The notes under the pieces: generated by a model
Told to the model about the DNA's origin: nothing
The model's input: the letters and a program-made list of their open reading frames with translations, nothing else
Databases searched by the model: none
Program-made: the position numbers and the translations under genes
DNA from: a bacterium
GTDB taxonomy: Bacteria > Zixibacteria > MSB-5A5 > GN15 > FEB-12
Length of the DNA: 64,000 bases
Reading direction: 5' to 3'
Assembly (NCBI GenBank): GCA_043811375.1
Contig: JBDRNJ010000084.1
Coordinates: 1 to 64,000, forward strand
Part shown: positions 20,914 through 36,402 of the stretch, in pieces
Position numbering within the stretch: position 1 is the first letter of the stretch
Layout of the letters: each line of letters opens with the position of its first letter

Positions 20914-23139
20914 ATGACCAGAAGGAAAGCTTTGGTCATCGGGATTGACAAATATCCCGAAAGCCCTTTAAGAAACTGCGAAAGCGATGCTCAAGAGGTG
21001 GGCGATATACTTGGTTTTCCCGAATATAACTTCGAGGTGAAAACTCTACTGAATGCAAATGCTACTAGGCGAGAGATCCTGGGGCACCTAAATGAGCTTT
21101 TTGAAGATGAACCGGAGTTTGCGGTCTTTTATTTCGCAGGACACGGAATGACAAATGAGTTAACTACTTACCTTGTTTCTGTAGACACCGATGACATAGA
21201 TCCGGGCATTGATTTGGACTACTTGAGGCGGTTAGTAAAAAGTAGGGCCGGGCTTGGTCGCTCCATAATCATACTGCTAGATTGCTGTCATTCTGGATCT
21301 GCCAATATACGTAGTTCAAGAAACACTAATCTGAGATTTGCAAGTAACCAAGACATTGACTCACTTATGCATTCTCTAGGATCAAGTACTGTGGTTATTG
21401 CAGCATGCCAGCCACAGGAGTTGGCCTATGAAGAACCTTCGTTGGAGCATGGTGTGTTTACATTTTATTTGTTGGAGGGTATGTATGGCGATGCAGCTGA
21501 TCATAACGGCAGCATTACCGCTCTGAATCTTTATGAGTATGTTTCTCAAAGACTTGAAAAGGTTACAAATCAGACGCCGGTCTTCAAGGGTGATATAATA
21601 GGTCGGAATGTGTTGGCAACCGGTCTGAAACCTCGCGACGCTACTGTACTTCCTAGCGATGAAGCCAGGAGAATCGAGATCACCGCGGAGAACATGATCA
21701 ATGAATACATTCAGCTAACATCCGTAGATCTATCGTCCTGGGATAGGAATGTATACAAACATGCCAGTTCCGCTCTAGAGCCCAAGTTGCGTTGGTTTAA
21801 CAAGCAGCTTCTAAAGTATCCGAGTTTATCGAAAAGCCAGATATTCAAATCTGCTTTTTCGACCGCACAGGCAAAACGAGCAGATTTGGGCCATCTGAAA
21901 GAAGGACTTAACGCCGGAATCGGTACCATTGGAGCCAAGCTGGGTTCCGGGACTTTCGGCACAGTCTGGCAGGTGAAGACTGACGAAAATTATGATCTTG
22001 CTTATAAAGTTTATCACCCGATGGATCTGGAAAATCAAGAAAAATTGGCGCGTTTTTACCGCGGTTACCGAGCTATGCAGCAGCTGGACCATCCTCATGT
22101 CGTCAAAGTATATAGTTATACCGAATGCCCAATCGGCTTTACGATGCAGCTGATAAAAGGTCCTAATCTGAGAGACTTTGTGTACATGGATGCGAATCCT
22201 GAGGAGATCATACACCAACTCTTGGACGTGGGCGAAACGCTAAAGCATGCGCATTCCAGGGGGGTTATTCATAGAGATGTAAAACCGGAAAACATAATAG
22301 TGAGCTCTGAAAAAGAAGAGGGTGATACGGCCAATCGCCCATACTTAACTGACTTCGACTTGGCATGGTTTAGCACCGCGACTCAGTTTACGAAAGAAGG
22401 AGTAGGTAGCCTCATCTATGCGGCCCCTGAGCAATTGTCCAAACCACAATCAAATGTAGCACATGCTGTAACAACAGATGTTTACGCTTTTGGGCAGCTA
22501 TGTTTTTTCTTCTTGTGCAGGAGGGATCCAGTTCCTGGGCTTGCCGATAACTCACGCGCTCTGAGAGAATCTGTGATAACCTGGAGTACTGAAGAGCCGG
22601 CCCAGAAAATGGTGCAACTCTATGAACAGTGCACCCAGATAAAACCAGGGAACCGAATCCAGGATTTCCGAGACCTTTGCGATCAACTCTTTGAAATCCA
22701 TCAGCTCATTACGGAACATGACCACAGGAGAATAATCGGCTTCGATCGGTTTGCAAAGCAACTCATGTTCTCAATTATAGGTTTGTCTCCTGATTGGAAG
22801 ATTTCGGACACCGTGTTTTTCACTAAAACTAGACACTATAGAGTGTCTATGAACTATTCTGATGCGTCGCGGGGGAAATGCACTATTGGACTGGAGATAT
22901 TTGCTGAGGTACCACATATGGGAGATGGGAGTATTACCTATCAGCAACGCCGCAGGAAGTTGAACAGGAGGATTGATTCGGTTTTGAAATCATATCAGAA
23001 CCGGGTAGTCCGACGGGCGGGGAAGGTGGCACCGTTCTCTATCACTCTATTCATTAACAAAATACAATTGAACACGGACGGTGTTGAATTCTGCCGCCAA
23101 ATCCTCATGAGGGTCATAAACTGTTTAGAAGGCAATTAA
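20914..23139 (+). CDS. Caspase-like (peptidase C14) protease fused to a Ser/Thr protein kinase domain
   Basis: ALVIGIDKY, FAGHG (His), LDCCHSG (Cys) and GVFTFYLLEG. Kinase motifs GSGTFG, LAYK, HRDVKPEN, DFD and YAAPE. Confidence 0.9.
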   Translation: MTRRKALVIGIDKYPESPLRNCESDAQEVGDILGFPEYNFEVKTLLNANATRREILGHLNELFEDEPEFAVFYFAGHGMTNELTTYLVSVDTDDIDPGIDLDYLRRLVKSRAGLGRSIIILLDCCHSGSANIRSSRNTNLRFASNQDIDSLMHSLGSSTVVIAACQPQELAYEEPSLEHGVFTFYLLEGMYGDAADHNGSITALNLYEYVSQRLEKVTNQTPVFKGDIIGRNVLATGLKPRDATVLPSDEARRIEITAENMINEYIQLTSVDLSSWDRNVYKHASSALEPKLRWFNKQLLKYPSLSKSQIFKSAFSTAQAKRADLGHLKEGLNAGIGTIGAKLGSGTFGTVWQVKTDENYDLAYKVYHPMDLENQEKLARFYRGYRAMQQLDHPHVVKVYSYTECPIGFTMQLIKGPNLRDFVYMDANPEEIIHQLLDVGETLKHAHSRGVIHRDVKPENIIVSSEKEEGDTANRPYLTDFDLAWFSTATQFTKEGVGSLIYAAPEQLSKPQSNVAHAVTTDVYAFGQLCFFFLCRRDPVPGLADNSRALRESVITWSTEEPAQKMVQLYEQCTQIKPGNRIQDFRDLCDQLFEIHQLITEHDHRRIIGFDRFAKQLMFSIIGLSPDWKISDTVFFTKTRHYRVSMNYSDASRGKCTIGLEIFAEVPHMGDGSITYQQRRRKLNRRIDSVLKSYQNRVVRRAGKVAPFSITLFINKIQLNTDGVEFCRQILMRVINCLEGN

Positions 23140-25753: not shown

Positions 25754-25822
25754 ACGGAAAGCAGGCGAATCCGGGCGATTCGAGTGGGGGTTTACTCATA
25801 GTATAGCAATCAGTTAGGTGTT

Positions 25823-25887
25823 GTAGGGCAGGTCTGGCACAGACCTGCCATCTGTCACACCTGGATTCCTGCTTTCGCAGGAATGAC
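25823..25887. repeat. GTAG REP plus a GTCATTCC..GGAATCCAG-type palindrome
   Basis: GTAGGGCAGGTCTGGCACAGACCTGCC (25823-25849) and CTGGATTCCTGCTTTCGCAGGAATGAC (25861-25887). Confidence 0.75.
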
Positions 25888-26351: not shown

Positions 26352-26402
26352 AAATTAAAATGAGACGCCGCTCACACTCCCCTCGAATGTGAGGCGGCGT
26401 CT
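26352..26402 (-). terminator. Probable intrinsic terminator of the putative sRNA
   Basis: AGACGCCGC-C-TCACA...TGTGA-GCGGCGTCT stem followed by CATTTTAATTT on the minus strand. Confidence 0.65.
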
Positions 26403-26460
26403 GCCAAAGAGAAAGAATAAAACCAAGCACCAACAACAGCGCTGGAGCAAAAATGACACT
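26352..26460 (-). ncRNA. Putative sigma54-dependent small RNA (~105 nt)
   Basis: Bounded by a sigma54 promoter and a terminator. U-rich, low-structure 5' half with no RBS-led ORF inside. Confidence 0.5.
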
Positions 26461-26469
26461 ATACGTTGT

Positions 26470-26485
26470 AGCAATGTCGGTGCCG
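26470..26485 (-). promoter_or_regulatory. sigma54 (-24/-12) promoter
   Basis: Minus strand CGGCACCGACATTGCT: GG-N10-GC with GGCAC and TTGCT consensus blocks, adjacent to a bEBP gene. Confidence 0.75.
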
Positions 26486-26583: not shown

Positions 26584-26599
26584 TCGTATGATTATACGA
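26584..26599. promoter_or_regulatory. Candidate upstream activator sequence (bEBP binding site)
   Basis: Perfect dyad TCGTAT-GATT-ATACGA centred about 130 bp upstream of the predicted sigma54 start site. Confidence 0.4.
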
Positions 26600-26609
26600 A
26601 ACCTGTCGC

Positions 26610-26651
26610 AAAAAAAGACGGTAAACGCTTGTTTGTCAAACGTTTACCGTT
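26610..26651 (-). terminator. Intrinsic terminator downstream of the activator gene
   Basis: ACGGTAAACG...CGTTTACCGT stem followed by C and T7 on the minus strand. Confidence 0.7.
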
Positions 26652-26818
26652 ATTGCACAGCAACTCGTACACATCGTATCCGCTCACGACCGGCAAGATC
26701 AGCGATACTATCACCCACAGCCAACAAGTGCTGATCCGGCCGTACGGCCAGCTACCGGTTACCACACGGTGTCAAGACTGCTGATTGCAGTTGTCCGCTT
26801 TTCAATTAGAGAACCGTC

Positions 26819-29074
26819 TCAGTGGACGACACCTCCTTCCAGATTGATCTGGTACCGTCTCACTTTTGTTCGAATAGTCGCCTCGTGGATTCCCAACATG
26901 CGGGCCGCCTCGGACTTGTTGCCGCGGCTGGCCAGCAAAGCTTCGACTATCATCCGACGTTCCAGTTGCTCGACCCGCTCGAACAGTGATTGGGCAACCT
27001 GCTCCCGTTCGGGCGAAAAGATTGATCGTGACAACTCGACCAGGTCGCCTTCTTTCACCAGTTCAACCATGACTTCCAGTTGTCTGACCTTGTTGAGCAG
27101 TTCGCGGGTGTTGCCGGGCCAGTTATGCTCGATAAACTGGTGCACCAGTTCGGTCGGAGGCGGGCCGTTGCTTTTAAGCAGCCGGCTGTTTGCCATGAAG
27201 TGTGCCAACAGAAGCGGGATATCCTCTTTCCGCTCGCGCAGGGCCGGGAGATGGAAAGCGAATCCGCTCAGTCGGTAGAACAGGTCGCGTCTGAACTCGC
27301 CCCGATCGACCTTCTCTTCGAGATTATTGTTGGTGGCCACAACCAGCTTGATATCAAGCTGTACTTCCTCGGTGGAGCCCAGCGGCATAACTCGGCGCGT
27401 TTCCAACACTCCCAGCAGTTTGGCCTGAAGTACCAACGGCATATCGCCAATCTCATCCAGGTAGAGAACACCTTGATTGGCGGTCACGAACAGGCCCGGT
27501 TTGTCGCTATCGGCTCCAGTGAAGGCGCCCCGACGGTAACCGAACAGTTCCGATTCCAGAAGCGTTTCCGGAAAGGAAGCACAATTGACCGCAACCAGGG
27601 GAGCCTGTGGACGCACCAGTGAATGATAGTGGCGAGCCAGATGATCCTTGCCGACGCCGGTTTCTCCGGTCAAGAGCAACGGCAGATCGGATCGGCCGAT
27701 GGCCGGCAATTGCGACAGGAAACGCTTGATGACCGGGCAGGCCGTCAGGTAATCGTTCGAGTTGACCCGGCCAACAGAACCTGTGGTCGGATCAGCAACT
27801 GAAGAGGTAAGCGGATAATCGATCCCGTTGATTATCTTCTCCACCTCTTGAATTCCGGCCGTCAGAGCATGACGACGGTAGAACTCTTCGGCTCGGAAGA
27901 GGTAGACCAGCCGCTGTCTGTCAGGGAAGAGATTCGATTGACCGGCCTGGACCAGCGTCCGGGCCAGTTCGAAGCGTACTCCGCTCTCACGAATGAGTTC
28001 CAGGGCTTGAGCAAAGTACTCCCGTCCTTCGGACTCGTTACCGTCGGCTTCGGCTATGACAGCCTTGATTCTCAGTAGAGCGCCGATCTCAACGCTGTTG
28101 CCGGCCCGGTCCATGATAGCCATGGCTTTGGAAGCGCACTGTCGGGCAGCCGAAAATTCCTGCTTCAGCAGGTGCAGTTCGGCCAGGTGTCTCAGCACGC
28201 GTGCCGTCAGAGTCGTGTTGGGAGTTATTTCCTCCGCCAGTCGGCGGGCGCTGTCCAGCGCCTGCTGCGCCTCCGGCAAGCGACCCCAGCGATAGTAGAG
28301 CTCACCCCGGTAGGTCAGGCTGATTACTTCGTTGCGTCGCCCGTTAAGGGCAGCTATCTGCCGGTCGGCTTTGTCAAGCATTTGCTCGGCCTCACTGAAC
28401 CGGTCCTGCCGGATATAGACATATCCCAGAGCAATGCCGGCCCGGATCGTTTCCGAGGTGTCGCCCAGTTCCCCGGAGAGATCAACATTCATCTGAAGAT
28501 GTTCTTCAGCTTTGCTGAAATCTCCCAGGAAAGTATGGATGCGACCGATATTACCCATCATGTACGCCAGTTTCCGTTCATCGCCCAGTTTCCGAATAAT
28601 TTCCACGGCGTCGGTCAGCACCGAAAGCGCGTTGCGGTAGTCGGACTGTTTGTAAAACAGACCGGCCAGCAAATTCAGCGCCCGGCTCTGACCTTCAGGA
28701 GAGTCCTGACGTCGGAAGATTGATTCGGCATCCCGGAAAGCCTTTTCCGCCTCTTTGAACTCGCACATGTCGCGCAGGATGCCGCCGAGCGTAAGGAACG
28801 TCTCGGCCAGATCCCGGCTGTCGCCTTCCTGCGCCACCCGATTCTGCGCCAGTCGCGCTGTTTTCAAAGCGGTCGGGTAGTTCGAGAGAGAAGCGTAGGC
28901 TTCGGCTGCATGACGAAGAACTGATCCGGCCGGCGCACCAGCCGCGGCCTCAAGCTCTACCCGGTTGTCTTCGTAGAACTTGACGGCGGCGGTGAAGTCC
29001 CGCTTCTGGATCAGACACGCCATGTAGTGATTCATGGCGTGGCGGAAGTCACAACCTTTATGTGCCTTCTTCAT
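26819..29074 (-). CDS. sigma54-dependent enhancer-binding protein with N-terminal TPR array and Fis-type HTH
   Basis: About 400 aa of TPR-like helical repeats (e.g. ALNLLAGLFYKQSDYRNAL, MGNIGRIHTFLGDFSKAEEH). AAA+ motifs GETGVGK, ESELFG..GAFTGA, LDEIG, FRRDLFYRL and WPGNTREL. HTH GNKSEAARMLGI. Confidence 0.95.
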   Translation of the reverse strand: MKKAHKGCDFRHAMNHYMACLIQKRDFTAAVKFYEDNRVELEAAAGAPAGSVLRHAAEAYASLSNYPTALKTARLAQNRVAQEGDSRDLAETFLTLGGILRDMCEFKEAEKAFRDAESIFRRQDSPEGQSRALNLLAGLFYKQSDYRNALSVLTDAVEIIRKLGDERKLAYMMGNIGRIHTFLGDFSKAEEHLQMNVDLSGELGDTSETIRAGIALGYVYIRQDRFSEAEQMLDKADRQIAALNGRRNEVISLTYRGELYYRWGRLPEAQQALDSARRLAEEITPNTTLTARVLRHLAELHLLKQEFSAARQCASKAMAIMDRAGNSVEIGALLRIKAVIAEADGNESEGREYFAQALELIRESGVRFELARTLVQAGQSNLFPDRQRLVYLFRAEEFYRRHALTAGIQEVEKIINGIDYPLTSSVADPTTGSVGRVNSNDYLTACPVIKRFLSQLPAIGRSDLPLLLTGETGVGKDHLARHYHSLVRPQAPLVAVNCASFPETLLESELFGYRRGAFTGADSDKPGLFVTANQGVLYLDEIGDMPLVLQAKLLGVLETRRVMPLGSTEEVQLDIKLVVATNNNLEEKVDRGEFRRDLFYRLSGFAFHLPALRERKEDIPLLLAHFMANSRLLKSNGPPPTELVHQFIEHNWPGNTRELLNKVRQLEVMVELVKEGDLVELSRSIFSPEREQVAQSLFERVEQLERRMIVEALLASRGNKSEAARMLGIHEATIRTKVRRYQINLEGGVVH

Positions 29075-29436
29075 CTCGTGTTACCCTTGTTGTTATCAGT
29101 CGGATTCGAATCTTCCTCCTGATTTCCTCCGTTGGGAATGATGTAAAAGTGGGTTTTCCGGTTCATACTCCTGTTCCAGGAGTCACCGTAGAACCAATCA
29201 CCAAAAACGATGTTGATCAGCAAATCCAGGTGTGTGAAACTCGATCCCACCGGGACAAAACCTCCGCTGCCGGGGGCCAGATCGATACTGCCATCCCAGC
29301 GCTGTTCGCCTCCCCAGGTGTGATCATCACCCCGGGACGGGTCCTTGTAGTTGTAAGGCTGTTCTCTGGAGAACGAGACGTCCGACACGACCAGGACCAG
29401 CAACAGCGCAATTGCAATTGTAAACACGCGCTTCAT
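29071..29436 (-). CDS. Small secreted protein / candidate signalling pre-propeptide
   Basis: Sec signal MKRVFTIAIALLLVLVVSDVSFS followed by a G/D/N-rich region with GDDHTWGGEQ. AAGGAG RBS. ATGA overlap with the activator start. Confidence 0.8.
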   Translation of the reverse strand: MKRVFTIAIALLLVLVVSDVSFSREQPYNYKDPSRGDDHTWGGEQRWDGSIDLAPGSGGFVPVGSSFTHLDLLINIVFGDWFYGDSWNRSMNRKTHFYIIPNGGNQEEDSNPTDNNKGNTR

Positions 29437-29541
29437 AAGAGCACTCCTTGTATTATGTTTATTACATCATATTTTTATTCGTGAGTGTGGTGAAAGCTTC
29501 AAAGCATGGTCGGGTTCTACGGACACCTCGACCGCAACTTA

Positions 29542-29570
29542 AAAATAGCAGTTTTCTCGTTGTTTGTCAA
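29542..29570 (-). promoter_or_regulatory. sigma70-type promoter of the peptide-activator operon
   Basis: Minus strand TTGACA-17 nt-TATTTT with extended -10 TG and an A-tract upstream. Confidence 0.65.
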
Positions 29571-31136: not shown

Positions 31137-32714
31137 CTACCACCACTTCTGCCGGCCGTTTTCGAGCGTGAAGATCCGCTCCTCCTTTCTGGAATCTTTC
31201 GCCACCAGCCAGTACAGACCGCCATCAGGTACATCACACCACTGCAGCGGCTTCTCCCCGGTTATCATGGTACCCAGCGATTGCCAGCCATCATTGAAGA
31301 AAAACAACTCGTACTCGATCCCCACCGACAAATGCGACACTGCCGTCTCCCCGCTATCGCCCGCGCACGACTGCGGATCGGTGGCGGTCAGATTTACTGT
31401 CGCTGTTCGCAGCGTATCTGCCGGCAGGGTCGTGATACGGCCGTCCGGCCCCAGTATGAACGGTGCCGCCAAAGGGATCAGTTTTTCATCGAAATAAATC
31501 GTCGGTAGGTAGACGATATCGGTGCCCATATCGGTAAATGTTACCTGCCCGTCGTTGATCCGTCCCCAGTGAATTGCTCGCCACTCTCCCGAATTGAACA
31601 CGGCCAGATAGGCAAAATTCCGGCCGGCGGCAGCTGTACTGTCGCAGGTGATAGTGACGTCGCTGACGTCGACATAGTCGGCAGTAACATCGATATAGCT
31701 CCTGCCTCCCAGCCAGGGGGGAACGTCTTCATCTTCGTTTTTAAGAAAGGCCAGGTTGCCCGGCTGATGTGCAAACATTTTGCGATATACCTTAGCGATA
31801 CGATGACCCAGCCGGTACTCACCGGGGTTGGCTTCGGCGCCCATAAACGGTATGGCCCGACCGTCCGGTGTCAGGATGGCATTCCAGGCATGGTTGTTGC
31901 CGGCGTTGGCCCAGGCGGGAGTGTAATCGCTGGTGACGGCCAGCCCGTTGGCCCTCATGGCATATATGGTCAGGTTGGTCATGTCCTCACAGCGCCCCAT
32001 CTGATTGGTCACCATTTCACTCAGACCCTGGTCGGTAGGATGGCAGTAGAACCGCTCATCGAATCTGAACCAGGACTTGATATCGCTGTTTATCAACTGA
32101 GCGGCTTCGACAGGATCGTGCGGGTCTTGCATCTGCTGTTTTAGTCCTTCGTAGCGCTGCCAGCAGGATTGACGCCAGGACTGAAGCGGCTCGCCGCTGC
32201 CGCGATACGGCAGAACGTAGGCGCAAAAATCATTAAATGACAGATGGCGGCTCCATGGTTTCTCATGCCAGGCTTTAAGCGCCCAGGTGATATTCTCGAT
32301 GAGGTACTGCGAGGTGATGACATCGATATCCATTATCGAATCTTTTTTCTTAAAATCGAGCTCACCTCGTCGGCTTTCGATATCATCCAGAGCCTTAATC
32401 AATGTTTGATAATCGGGGTAGTCCAGGACATCCAGAGAGACTTCGGAGTGGCTGCTGTCATAGAGAGCATACACCGTATAGCGGTGTCCTTCCAGGTTAC
32501 CGATCAGATATTGGGCAGAGGCCAGCCCCATCGAATCGCCTTGCTGTTGAAAATAGGTCAGGGTTTTCTGAAGTTCACCCCGGTTGTCTCTTGCCTTTTC
32601 AAGCACTTTTTCAATTTCCGCCGGGTACTCCGCAGAGCGGGTCTGAACGCAGGCGGTACCGAAAACTACTGCCAGAAACAGCAGAACGGGCGCCATTTGT
32701 ATTCGATTTGCCAT
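31137..32714 (-). CDS. Transglutaminase-like domain lipoprotein
   Basis: Lipobox-like GTAC, F..YVLPYR, GRCEDM (Cys), NHAWN (His) and AKVYR. Confidence 0.85.
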   Translation of the reverse strand: MANRIQMAPVLLFLAVVFGTACVQTRSAEYPAEIEKVLEKARDNRGELQKTLTYFQQQGDSMGLASAQYLIGNLEGHRYTVYALYDSSHSEVSLDVLDYPDYQTLIKALDDIESRRGELDFKKKDSIMDIDVITSQYLIENITWALKAWHEKPWSRHLSFNDFCAYVLPYRGSGEPLQSWRQSCWQRYEGLKQQMQDPHDPVEAAQLINSDIKSWFRFDERFYCHPTDQGLSEMVTNQMGRCEDMTNLTIYAMRANGLAVTSDYTPAWANAGNNHAWNAILTPDGRAIPFMGAEANPGEYRLGHRIAKVYRKMFAHQPGNLAFLKNEDEDVPPWLGGRSYIDVTADYVDVSDVTITCDSTAAAGRNFAYLAVFNSGEWRAIHWGRINDGQVTFTDMGTDIVYLPTIYFDEKLIPLAAPFILGPDGRITTLPADTLRTATVNLTATDPQSCAGDSGETAVSHLSVGIEYELFFFNDGWQSLGTMITGEKPLQWCDVPDGGLYWLVAKDSRKEERIFTLENGRQKWW

Positions 32715-32962: not shown

Positions 32963-34459
32963 TTGTTGCGAACAGTTGCAGAAACAGGTGAGGTCGCTGT
33001 GTGTTGTTTTAGACGGTGGTTGAGGTATTCGGCGAGCCTGGGGTTCTTATTGTACCTGGTATCGTGCAGCGGGGATATCAATGTTACCACCGCTCCGGAA
33101 GTTGTATGGACCGATCCCTCTAACGGTGCTCAGAATGTCTCGCTCTCCACGCCAATCCGGGTCGGTTTCTCAAGAGTCATGGACCCGGCCACCATTAGCG
33201 TGACCACGTTCACGCTCGACAACAACGCCTACGGGGTGGTGGAACAGTTGGGAACGACGGCCACTTTCACACCGATCAAGAGATTCAAGCTGAACACGAC
33301 CTATACCGTAACGATTACCACCGGAGTACGTGATCGGGATGGAAATCCGCTGGAAGTGGCCCATGTCTGGCATTTCCACACGGTACCGCCGGCCCCGGCA
33401 GTGAGCCGTTTCAATCCTGACAGCGGCCGCGCCGGTTGCATCATTACGATCTACGGCGCCAATTTTTCAGACAATCCGGTGGGTAACAGTGTTCGCTTTA
33501 ATGGGGTCCAGGCGACGATTATCTCAGCATCTCCCACAGAGATCAGGGCCGAGGTACCCCTTGGCGCCGCCACCGGTCCGATCACCGTGGCTACAGCCGG
33601 GGGACGCACCGTTTCGGGAATCTTCTATGTGATCCGGCCCGGTGAGATATGGGAAGCGGTGTCGTCCGGCGTCATCAGTTCACTGGCTGGTGTGACCTGG
33701 ACGGGTTCGCGGTTTATTGCCGTTGGGGTTGCCGGCACTATCCTGACGTCGCCGGATGGCGTCACGTGGACAAAACAGGTATCCGGGACTCTTCATGGTC
33801 TGAATGATGTCTCCCGGTCGGGTGATCGGGTGGTAGCTGTTGGCGATGTCGGTGAGGTTCTTTCCTCCCCAGATGGCATCGAATGGGAGCGGAGTGAGTC
33901 ACCGACTCGTTCTTCTCTGTTTGCAGTAACCTGGACCGGTAAAGTATTCCTGGCTGTTGGGGCTGACGGTGCTATTCTGGCCTCGGAACAGGGGCGGGAA
34001 TGGGTATCCCTGTATTCGCAAACTTATGACTGGCTGTACGATGTGGCTGTCCGGGGTGATTTGCTGGCGGTTTGTGGACACTCCGGTGTTATCCGTACGT
34101 CCCGCGATGGTATTCTGTGGGTTCCGCGTGAGTCCGGCACTAGGGCCACTCTGCTGGGGGTAACTGTAACTGAAACCGTCCTGGCGGTGGTCGGACATAA
34201 CGGCACCATTCTGACATCAACGGATGGCCAGGTTTGGGTGGCGCGCCAGTCACAAACATCCAGCCATCTGGGCGGTCTGGCCTGGTCGGGAGAGATGTTT
34301 GCAACCGTTGGGCTTGGCGGAATCGTGCTGACGTCACCTGAAGGGATCAACTGGACTGCTCGCATTTCGCCTACCACCGCCGATCTGACCGATCTGGCCT
34401 GGTCCGGTACCAGGTTTGTGGCAGTCGGCTACCACGGCGCCATTATCACTTCTTATTGA
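32963..34459 (+). CDS. Surface lipoprotein: Ig-like (Big_5) + IPT/TIG + Asp-box beta-propeller
   Basis: LVSC lipobox, P.NGA.NV...I.V.FS..MD, ITIYGANF...V.FNG, and repeats of VAVGxxGTILTSPDGxxW. Start codon uncertain. Confidence 0.82.
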   Translation: MLRTVAETGEVAVCCFRRWLRYSASLGFLLYLVSCSGDINVTTAPEVVWTDPSNGAQNVSLSTPIRVGFSRVMDPATISVTTFTLDNNAYGVVEQLGTTATFTPIKRFKLNTTYTVTITTGVRDRDGNPLEVAHVWHFHTVPPAPAVSRFNPDSGRAGCIITIYGANFSDNPVGNSVRFNGVQATIISASPTEIRAEVPLGAATGPITVATAGGRTVSGIFYVIRPGEIWEAVSSGVISSLAGVTWTGSRFIAVGVAGTILTSPDGVTWTKQVSGTLHGLNDVSRSGDRVVAVGDVGEVLSSPDGIEWERSESPTRSSLFAVTWTGKVFLAVGADGAILASEQGREWVSLYSQTYDWLYDVAVRGDLLAVCGHSGVIRTSRDGILWVPRESGTRATLLGVTVTETVLAVVGHNGTILTSTDGQVWVARQSQTSSHLGGLAWSGEMFATVGLGGIVLTSPEGINWTARISPTTADLTDLAWSGTRFVAVGYHGAIITSY

Positions 34460-34596
34460 ACCAAACAAGCATCCCGGTATTGGATTTCAATTGAACCTGA
34501 TTAACACTCAAGCTATATTCGGTCGGTAGAGATTTGTGATTTGTTGCAGCCCGGTGCCGCAGCCGAAACTTCGGCACCGCGCAGAAGGAGATTTTT

Positions 34597-36402
34597 ATGT
34601 TCCCCACCAGACGATTATTGACCGGGTTGGCCGTGCTCGTTTTGTTGCTGATGATCGGCTCATGTGATAGTGATGAGACTACCGAACCGACCGTTGTTGA
34701 GGCTGGAGATTACTGGTATCTCAACGCCACCGGCACCAGCGCCTATCTCTTCGATTTGGCATACTCGGGCAATCGCTATGTTTGCGTGGGAGAAGGCGGA
34801 GTCATTGTGACCTCGCCCGACGGCACGGTCTGGACGATGCGACCCTCGCCCACTACCGAGGATATGCTGGGAATCACCTGGGCCGATTCATTATTCGTTG
34901 CTGTCGGTGACGGCGGGACTATTATCACTTCACCAGACGGCCTCACCTTCGCGGAAGTATCATCGCCGACCTCCAAGTGGCTGTATCGTATCGCCGCTTC
35001 TGAAGCCGGGTTGGTGGCGGTGGGCCAGGACGGAACCATTATTACATCCGCCGATGGCCTGAGTTGGGACTCCGTGATTACGGTCCGGGACACTTTTGTT
35101 TTCGGAGACGTCACGGTGGACACGGCCATCAACTCCAATCTCTATGGCGTCACCTGGGCTGACAGCCATTTTGTGATAGTCGGCGGTGGTGTGGCGCTGC
35201 AGTCACCCGACGGTGAGAGTTTCAGCGTCGTCAACTCCGACCTGGGGCGCTACTTCTATGGTGTCGCCCGGTCTGACACCCAGTATGTCATCGCCGGGCA
35301 GGATGGGTCTATCCTCAGTTCTCCTGATCTGAGCCTGCCGGATTCCATCCGCTGGAAGAAGCAGATGCTCGGCTTGCGTATCAACTTTCTTGATGCTGCC
35401 GCGACTGATTCACAGTTCGTGGTGGTCGGCGAGCATGGCGCTATCGTGTCCTCACCCGACGGCGAAACCTGGACCTGGAGCGACTCTCCGTATCCCTTCC
35501 ACCTGCGCGGCGTGGAATGGACCGACGATCATTTCACTGCCGTGGGATTGGATGGAACAATCCTCACATCGCCCGACGGCCGCGCGTGGACCCGTTGGCC
35601 CTCCGGACCGACGACAATGCTCTACAATGCTACAGCTTCTGATTCGCTGCTGGTGGCGGTCGGTGACAGCGGTACTATCATGACCTCGGCCGATGGCTCC
35701 GTCTGGACCCGGCAAACGCCGGTCACCGGCGATTCACTGATGGGAGTGGCCTGCTCTTCAGATCGCTACCTGGCGGTGAGTGCCGGTGGTTTAATTGTTT
35801 CCTCGCTCGACGGGGTGGACTGGACGGTTGTCGATTCCCTGGTCGGCGGCCAGCTAAACGACATTGTCTGGTCGGGATCAGAGTTTATGTCGGTGGGGGG
35901 GCAGGGCACGGTAGTCACTTCGGGCGATGGTATTACCTTCGACAGCGCCAACGCCGGAACGTCACTAAACCTCTACGATGTTATCTGGTCCGACACTCAA
36001 TACGTAGCTGTTGGTGCTGACGGTATTATCATGACTTCACCCGACGGCAATACCTGGATCGAGTGGATCAGGCCGGCCGTTCTGCCCGATTTGCATGGTG
36101 TGGCGGCGGCTCCCGGGAAGCTGGTGGCGGTGGGTGACAGCGGCACGGTGCGTCTTTCCGTCGACCAGGGTATCAGTTGGAATTTGCAGGCAGTGCCCAC
36201 GGCGGAGAACCTCCGGGCGGTTACCTGGTCCGGCAGCAGATTTGTGGCTGTGGGAGCGCTGGGAACGGTTCTGGTGTCGTCCGACGGTATAAACTGGGTG
36301 GTGAAAACATCGGCGGTGACTGTCAGGCTGAATGATGTCATCTGGACTTCCGAACGGTTCCTGGCTGTCGGAGCCTACAATGTTATTTTATCCTCTCAGT
36401 AG
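34597..36402 (+). CDS. Lipoprotein made of ~14 Asp-box (BNR/YCF48-like) repeats, likely a double beta-propeller
   Basis: IGSC lipobox and ~40-aa repeats of VAVGxxGTIxTSxDGxxW. AAGGAG RBS. Confidence 0.88.
   Translation: MFPTRRLLTGLAVLVLLLMIGSCDSDETTEPTVVEAGDYWYLNATGTSAYLFDLAYSGNRYVCVGEGGVIVTSPDGTVWTMRPSPTTEDMLGITWADSLFVAVGDGGTIITSPDGLTFAEVSSPTSKWLYRIAASEAGLVAVGQDGTIITSADGLSWDSVITVRDTFVFGDVTVDTAINSNLYGVTWADSHFVIVGGGVALQSPDGESFSVVNSDLGRYFYGVARSDTQYVIAGQDGSILSSPDLSLPDSIRWKKQMLGLRINFLDAAATDSQFVVVGEHGAIVSSPDGETWTWSDSPYPFHLRGVEWTDDHFTAVGLDGTILTSPDGRAWTRWPSGPTTMLYNATASDSLLVAVGDSGTIMTSADGSVWTRQTPVTGDSLMGVACSSDRYLAVSAGGLIVSSLDGVDWTVVDSLVGGQLNDIVWSGSEFMSVGGQGTVVTSGDGITFDSANAGTSLNLYDVIWSDTQYVAVGADGIIMTSPDGNTWIEWIRPAVLPDLHGVAAAPGKLVAVGDSGTVRLSVDQGISWNLQAVPTAENLRAVTWSGSRFVAVGALGTVLVSSDGINWVVKTSAVTVRLNDVIWTSERFLAVGAYNVILSSQ

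Follow-up and report, generated by a model that had tools for sequence, protein, structure and literature searches.

A conserved exported-type small protein paired with a TPR sigma-54 activator in Zixibacteria, with a predicted small-RNA output

The small gene and its protein

We analysed a 64,000-nucleotide (nt) stretch of Zixibacteria DNA (assembly GCA_043811375.1, contig JBDRNJ010000084.1, positions 1 to 64,000 of the forward strand; hereafter the window), in which a small open reading frame (ORF) of exported type directly precedes the gene for a sigma-54 enhancer-binding protein with tetratricopeptide repeats (TPR). The stop of the small ORF overlaps the activator ATG (ATGA, 29071-29074), and the two genes are followed by a control region and a small RNA gene (Table 1). 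An earlier reading of the sequence, the original prediction, had taken the small ORF for a signalling pro-peptide. The case from sequence is strong that the two genes are a phylum-wide, undescribed pair of ligand-receptor type with a traceable RNA output.

The small ORF is judged genuine, with a cleavable-type signal, a conserved core, a second motif and no stable fold predicted for its product. Its signal peptide, already proposed in the original prediction, was judged by pattern from a basic N-terminus, a hydrophobic helix (residues 2-18 in the model) and small residues at -3/-1; these n-, h- and c-regions and the -3/-1 rule are conserved in homologues. The predicted signal-peptidase cut falls after residue 23, and position -1 is S, A or G in 130 of 142 homologues anchored on a conserved Pro. 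A lipoprotein reading was discarded, a lipobox being present in 0 of 151 sequences. The mature part is rich in G, D, N and S, as had been claimed (41 of 98 residues, 42%; 33% across the family), and contains the H/W motif (residues 34-46) and amphipathic segment (69-83) that had been singled out. Neither Pfam nor NCBIfam has a match for the protein. Its model shows two helices within an otherwise disordered chain, with a predicted template modelling score (pTM) of 0.24 from AlphaFold and 0.17 from the ESM Atlas; the Atlas gave no usable match for the protein. Ahead of the two genes, the sigma-70-type promoter-like site agrees with the consensus at 10 of 12 positions and has an extended -10 TG, and a TTGAC-type -35 element lies at a comparable place in most related loci inspected. 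Two 151-nt contigs in one RNA library are identical to the window (28837-28987 and 29059-29209), which does not prove transcription.

Conservation is confined to a short core

Because a search with the single sequence found one relative only, a profile search was needed, and it returned 320 clusters at 50% identity (E<=0.001). Family percentages refer to 151 sequences or to the best 150 of the profile matches, sets that are biased by a profile rewarding the motif; loci selected by their activator therefore served as the unbiased sets. H-x-W-G is present in 144 of the best 150 profile matches at a median identity of 23%, and the other six carry near variants. Over the 151 sequences the core is conserved at H 97%, W 99%, G 99%, G 99% and D/E 96%, and the second element, 24-40 residues past the His, at T 71%, G 73% and D 86%. 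Among 30 aligned activator-selected sequences only M1, H39, W41 and G42 are invariant at a mean column identity of 24%, which places the H/W motif and the second amphipathic segment beyond chance.

Homologues keep three elements. The first is a Pro at position 4 of the predicted mature protein, the second the core D-D-H-P/T-W-G-G-D/E, and the third T-G-x-x-x-hydrophobic-D, which runs into an amphipathic helix. Linkers of variable length separate them, and conservation is confined to the 5-9 residue core. This is the short window that had been guessed at, and we found neither uniform conservation over the full length nor a stable predicted fold. The arginines proposed as cleavage sites on either side of the core did not hold up, since only 2 of 144 sequences have R/K at the fourth place ahead of the His and 5 of 144 at the seventh place beyond it; the two flanking arginines are peculiar to the window's copy. 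We also rejected an arrest-peptide reading: the family shares a C-terminal K/R-G, which the next gene's ribosome site accounts for, and has no other C-terminal conservation.

The small gene travels with the activator

Of 40 relatives, 38 have a single full-length orthologue of the activator. A signal-type ORF of 110-137 residues with H-P/T/N-W-G precedes it in 29 of 29 activator-selected loci, namely those with upstream DNA among the 30 fetched, window included. A public set of 80 loci, most of them labelled Zixibacteria or GN15 and some filed under other names, overlaps the other genome set and gave the same picture: three loci were dropped as too short, and 76 of the 77 with enough upstream DNA carry the small gene before the activator. 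Coordinate matching in 121 genomes showed that 69 of 70 profile matches directly precede a TPR activator, the single unpaired one (E 3e-4) having no TPR match nearby. Homologues lacking the activator are thus very rare; had they been the majority, this would have spoken against the proposed signalling role. Within the window's genome the motif is limited to 2 of 695 small signal-type ORFs, both directly before TPR-type activators, and H-x-W-G-G is carried by none of them but the ORF at 29071-29436; among 25 activator-like ORFs picked by pattern, such a gene precedes only the two intact ones of TPR type. In the loci read, no conserved third gene was found near the pair and no transporter or protease gene was linked to the cassette.

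The TPR profile matches 110 of 121 genomes of the phylum, with 2-7 matches per genome. Of 41 activators from other orders, 39 are preceded by a signal-type ORF, which has strict H-P/T-W in 31 cases, and a more divergent paralogue group shows such an ORF in only 11 of 20 loci by the filter used, with variable Trp-acidic cores. A second pair in the window's genome consists of a 976-residue TPR activator on contig C36 and a small protein in which x-P-W-D immediately follows the signal (27 of 30 loci). Behind this pair (G000:C36:36000-47346, L031) lie a lipoate-ligase-like gene, a gene for a 1120-residue TonB-dependent receptor and one for a PorV-like protein, possibly an exported-protein operon under the second activator's control. 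A third pair (G000:C46:4160-6560, L032) sits beside a tRNA-like gene; its small gene has an in-frame TGA just before the Trp-acidic core, and a sigma-54-like site follows its activator.

The activator and its TPR domain

The activator has the GAFTGA motif, Walker A and B motifs and C-terminal helix-turn-helix (HTH) of a sigma-54 enhancer-binding protein, and rpoN is present in the genome. TPR_12 and TPR_MalT match at its N-terminus, PF00158 with E 1.9e-57 and HTH_8 at its C-terminus. NCBIfam scores place it in no named subfamily (NtrC, NifA, PspF, LuxO and RtcR among others), all being below cut-off.

The TPR domain is modelled as a superhelix with a predicted local distance difference test score (pLDDT) of 93.6. 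Its best matches are LGN/Pins and kinesin light chain, then Rap phosphatases (profile E 1e-9 to 4e-6 against RapI, RapJ and RapF), all of them peptide-binding repeats, and by fold it also matches MalT domain III and NprR. Over residues 126-324, 13 conserved polar residues fall on five alternate helices, compared with 2 on the five intervening helices; N134, N175, R178, R211, Y218, Y255, E258, R292 and R295 are among the conserved set. In TPR geometry, residues of alternate helices line the groove. The presumed groove residues are mostly basic or Asn and the peptide core is acidic, a match that would suit binding of the core. Complex predictions with TPR residues 1-425 and small-protein residues 24-90, both supplied as alignments, scored 0.33, 0.00 and 0.20 against a mark of 0.32 and weigh neither way.

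The control region and a predicted small RNA

Behind the activator lie two palindromes, a terminator-like hairpin, a sigma-54 promoter-like site and a small RNA gene. In 23 loci 105-126 nt separate the proximal palindrome from the promoter, and in 19 of them 114-118 nt; the loose pattern occurs 24 times in the genome, so it is the spacing and not the word that constitutes the evidence. The small RNA folds better than 200 of 200 shuffles, shows two-sided changes at 13 of 17 pairs and has no Rfam 15 match at the gathering score (0 in the window and 10 loci). It is single-copy and adjoins the activator in 54 of 121 genomes, with 42 of 44 in the window's family and 8 of 8 and 2 of 2 in two others. 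It has its own predicted promoter and terminator, a conserved structure and a seed that covaries with its predicted target in family f1, more weakly in f3. Hfq was not found in the genome.

An ORF antisense to the small RNA was rejected: its start is conserved, but the frames are unrelated in length (5-24 codons) and sequence. The pro-peptide's own start region was likewise rejected as a target (own -17.0, swapped -17.9, shuffles -16.1 +/- 0.6 kcal/mol), with a poor rank among start regions. Separately, the 20 nt before the terminator (window ~26650-26670) pair with the pro-peptide ribosome site in 15 of 21 loci (L003-L030) at -14 to -23 kcal/mol, and the changes in L011, L029 and L030 match; the window's own copy lacks the pairing (-3.3). 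We read it as a 5'-3' fold-back or a 3'-derived antisense. In family f2 (L029, L030) the same promoter and terminator enclose an RNA of ~200-240 nt with a different 5' end. Window positions 25820-25860, in an intergenic gap, hold a short inverted repeat, likely a repeat element; its GG and GC lie one base too close together for a sigma-54 site.

A predicted anti-sigma target

The 5' end of the small RNA is the reverse complement of a ribosome site and start codon. Its best partner among 5,658 candidate start regions of the genome is that of a zf-HC2 anti-sigma gene, with 16 straight pairs. The start of this gene overlaps the stop of an extracytoplasmic function (ECF) sigma gene, whose product resembles SigW-type ECFs, below cut-off. 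Own-genome RNA-target pairs average -23.9 kcal/mol versus -19.0 when swapped (0 of 20,000 permutations); from 50 anti-sigma loci supplied, 25 genomes yielded both sides. Kin are not independent, and the permutation values therefore overstate the effect. RNA and target carry matching base changes in at least six lineages (G047; G012, G013 and G019; G011 and G081; G023; G010; a C/T switch after GGAG). In a stricter, ungapped test, for which 14 of 38 genomes dropped out with one side unextracted, 20 family-f1 genomes gave 13.5 for own versus 11.8 for swapped partners, the own partner being best or tied in 7 of 20; the direction is that of the first test and the discrimination is weak.

Table 1. 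Features of the cassette, its control region and the predicted target.
Feature	Position	Strand	Basis
121-residue exported-type pro-protein gene	29071..29436	-	ATG start; homologue family in 320 clusters
Ribosome-binding site AAGGAG of small ORF	29444..29449	-	sequence, 8 nt before ATG; AAGGAG-type sites in related loci
Sigma-70-type promoter-like site ahead of two-gene unit	29542..29570	-	TTGACA, 17 nt, TATTTT; consensus match only
Predicted Sec/signal peptidase I signal peptide, residues 1-23	29368..29436	-	hydrophobic core and -3/-1 small residues conserved; model helix 2-18
Conserved core, residues 36-44, G-D-D-H-T-W-G-G-E	29305..29331	-	conservation over 151 sequences
Second conserved element, residues 65-83, T-G-x-x-x-hydrophobic-D then amphipathic helix	29188..29244	-	conservation and model helix 68-83
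751-residue TPR, sigma-54 AAA+ (GAFTGA) and Fis-HTH enhancer-binding protein, no receiver domain	26819..29074	-	Pfam; model
Distal palindrome TCGT-N8-ACGA, likely enhancer site	26674..26689	.	two copies 87-93 nt apart in 18/30 loci
Intrinsic terminator-like hairpin ending two-gene transcript, between palindromes	26618..26650	-	14-pair stem and U run; same hairpin in 21 loci
Proximal palindrome TCGTA-N6-TACGA, likely enhancer site	26584..26599	.	115 nt before -24 element
Sigma-54 promoter-like -24/-12 site, GG-N10-GC	26470..26485	-	sequence; position conserved across loci
~100-nt small RNA gene: 5' anti-start-region seed, short hairpin, U/C-rich stretch, terminator hairpin	26357..26459	-	folding, covariation
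Predicted target anti-sigma gene	G000:C68:13024-13599		start-region pairing with small RNA

Import candidates and neighbouring genes

An exported core would meet a cytoplasmic TPR domain only by returning or by being bound before export, so that either re-entry or pre-export binding is needed. The PTR2, CstA, SbmA/BacA and oligo_HPY importers were not found in the window's genome. An oligopeptide transporter of the OPT family is present there and in 119 of 121 genomes and is a candidate import route in place of Opp; passages of PMC3061005 describe characterised OPTs as carrying peptides of 3-8 residues. In several genomes the OPT gene shares a contig with the ECF sigma/anti-sigma target, often at a distance of 10-25 kb (for example G020:C1, G048:C1, G012:C1 and G014:C10), which may be plain synteny.

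In several other loci (L005, L008, L009, L012, L014, L017, L018 and L021-L023) a lone shell-domain gene, sometimes with a vertex-protein-like gene, follows the cassette downstream of the small RNA; from its sequence pattern we take it to belong to microcompartments, and it is not in the window. Elsewhere in the window, a caspase-like peptidase C14 fused to a Ser/Thr kinase (20914-23139, + strand) lies in a lower-GC stretch and resembles defence or programmed-death modules. A secreted transglutaminase-like protein is encoded at 31137-32714 (- strand) and two exported proteins with many short repeats at 32963-36402 (+ strand).

A peptide re-import model and its alternatives

Our model is built from the gene pairing, the short-window conservation, the paralogous pairs with their own cores, the promoter and RNA conservation and the RNA-target covariation in the window's family, all of them read from sequence. 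We favour, with modest confidence, a reading in which a short peptide from the 121-residue pro-protein is re-imported and binds the TPR groove of the sigma-54 activator, with an RNA output. Sec is predicted to export the protein, from which extracytoplasmic trimming would leave a short peptide with the H-T-W-G-G core. This peptide would re-enter the cell, with the OPT-family transporter as the candidate route, and would bind the groove of the activator encoded directly behind the small gene. The activator would then act from the two palindromes on the sigma-54 promoter 330 nt downstream to produce one small RNA, which would pair over the ribosome site and start codon of the zinc-finger anti-sigma gene, silencing the anti-sigma and freeing the ECF sigma factor. 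Export, cleavage, re-import, binding and the sign of regulation are steps that we infer, as is the choice between cell-to-cell signalling and reporting on the cell's own periplasm. Of the original prediction of a signalling pro-peptide, the short conserved window and the linkage to the activator stand and the Arg cleavage sites do not; the sigma-54 promoter, the small RNA and its predicted anti-sigma target make up an output side that lay beyond it.

Several observations weigh against re-import of a short peptide. A role for more than a short peptide is suggested by the second motif, 24-40 residues away, and by the conserved Pro at mature position 4. No cleavage residues are conserved beside the core. 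The core is nearly constant across the whole order, unlike strain-specific pheromones. Of 41 genomes, 8 gave the Opp/Dpp binding protein (PF00496), six of them weakly; it was not found in the window's genome. OPT presence is not tied to the cassette, since OPT genes also occur in genomes without the TPR family, and prokaryotic OPTs were uncharacterised according to passages of PMC3061005. No upstream peptide gene was found at the G039 orthologue or at L137. On the output side, the small RNA lies beside the activator in 1 of 11 members of family f4 and in none of the other orders, 1 of 4 tested anti-sigma orthologues in family f3 matches the RNA, and kinship inflates the permutation values given above. 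Expression evidence for the cassette was not seen in four RNA runs with small shares (0.05-0.09), which gave no contig over the small RNA.

Some of these points fit a reading in which precursor and activator are made in equal numbers and the TPR domain binds the intact precursor in the cytoplasm only if its export fails. Sec would remove the precursor in healthy cells, the pair would report export stress and the RNA would free an envelope-type ECF sigma factor. The lack of Opp in most genomes and of conserved cleavage sites, the stop-start overlap, the constant core and the resemblance of the target sigma to SigW-type ECFs (below cut-off) are consistent with such a sensor, and the three spaced conserved elements would suit an intact disordered ligand like those along LGN-type TPRs. 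However, there are 2-7 TPR matches per genome, and sampled paralogues have their own precursors and cores. Separate cores are hard to explain here because a general Sec block would trip all pairs together. It also counts against export sensing that the known exported anti-activators, FlgM and ExsE, use dedicated secretion machines, and we regard this reading, which we rank second, as unlikely. Ranked third, and in our view improbable, is an indirect relay in which the mature protein stays periplasmic, perhaps held to the membrane by its amphipathic helix, and the core binds an unlinked membrane or periplasmic partner that signals to the activator with no TPR contact. Any exported topology puts the core outside the cytoplasm, the amphipathic helix is conserved and, in the loci read, the cassette has no linked transporter or protease gene. 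Yet no conserved third gene lies near the pair, and each paralogous activator keeps its own small gene and core, for which direct recognition is the simpler explanation.

Tight stop-start coupling, together with the RNA-level control of the unit that is indicated by the capacity of the transcript 3' end to pair with the small-gene ribosome site in 15 of 21 loci, would also fit a small gene that is a co-regulated exported product, or a leader tuning activator translation, with no ligand role. A leader, however, needs neither an invariant Trp core 40 residues from the start nor a cleavable signal, and the conservation is at the amino-acid level and mid-protein, not C-terminal as in arrest peptides; we give this possibility very little credence. 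Peptide re-import, which we rank first, can be extended to a broader and somewhat doubtful proposal. Zixibacteria would possess phylum-wide peptide signals unrelated to Gram-positive pheromones, with several Trp-acidic pro-peptides per genome, each imported by OPT and gating its own TPR sigma-54 activator, and this copy would feed a four-step cascade of peptide, activator, Hfq-independent small RNA and anti-sigma/ECF sigma. Because the core is common to the whole order, such signals could act between species in sediments.

Relation to known systems and significance

For RRNPP systems, passages of PMC10075063 specify a pro-peptide of 10-100 residues with a Sec/SPI signal, a receptor of 250-500 residues with a C-terminal TPR region, and neighbouring genes, and passages of PMC9765709 describe a C-terminal mature peptide imported by Opp, in Bacillota. 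The pair resembles RRNPP(A) (Rap-Phr, NprR-NprX, PlcR-PapR, AimR-AimP) in placing a small Sec-type pro-protein gene beside a cytoplasmic TPR receptor; it has a Sec/SPI signal (judged by pattern), TPRs of the peptide-binding type and directly neighbouring genes. It differs in the length of the pro-peptide (121 residues, 110-137 in relatives, versus 10-100) and in its receptor, here 751 residues with the TPR N-terminal and AAA+ and HTH C-terminal. In addition, the core is internal (residue ~40) and near-constant here, whereas the RRNPP core is C-terminal and variable; the phylum is diderm, with Opp not found in the window's genome; and LGN/Pins repeats outscore every RRNPP protein against the TPR domain. 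By analogy, the pair may work like an RRNPP system without being a member of that family.

On the output side, LuxO-Qrr and CbrB-CrcZ likewise have a sigma-54 activator with a small RNA gene right behind. Passages of PMC5568312 describe nla19-pxr of Myxococcus, in which activator gene, enhancer sites, sigma-54 promoter and ~100-nt stem-loop RNA follow one another as they do here. The activators of these three systems are of the receiver type and switched by phosphorylation, whereas the input here is a TPR superhelix. The layout differs further in that the RNA has no Rfam match, Hfq was not found and the predicted target is an anti-sigma start region. FlgM and ExsE are small proteins whose export changes transcription-factor activity, and they leave through type III machines without Sec signals. 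The small protein described here would be like them in its export-linked control, a comparison made by description, with no sequence search.

No publication describing a peptide-gated sigma-54 activator, or a system of this kind in Zixibacteria, came up in a search that left most subscription journals outside. The proposed chain from peptide to sigma-54 activator, small RNA and anti-sigma factor is not known to have been described in double-membraned bacteria. Peptide signals read by cytoplasmic TPR receptors are presented in passages of PMC10075063 and PMC9765709 as a feature of Bacillota. If the model is true, a conserved counterpart in a double-membraned, uncultured phylum would be a new type of input for enhancer-binding proteins and would give bacterial OPT transporters their first candidate signalling role. 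The signalling chain would be open to study without culturing Zixibacteria, and if the signal governs growth or dormancy, it might aid their cultivation.

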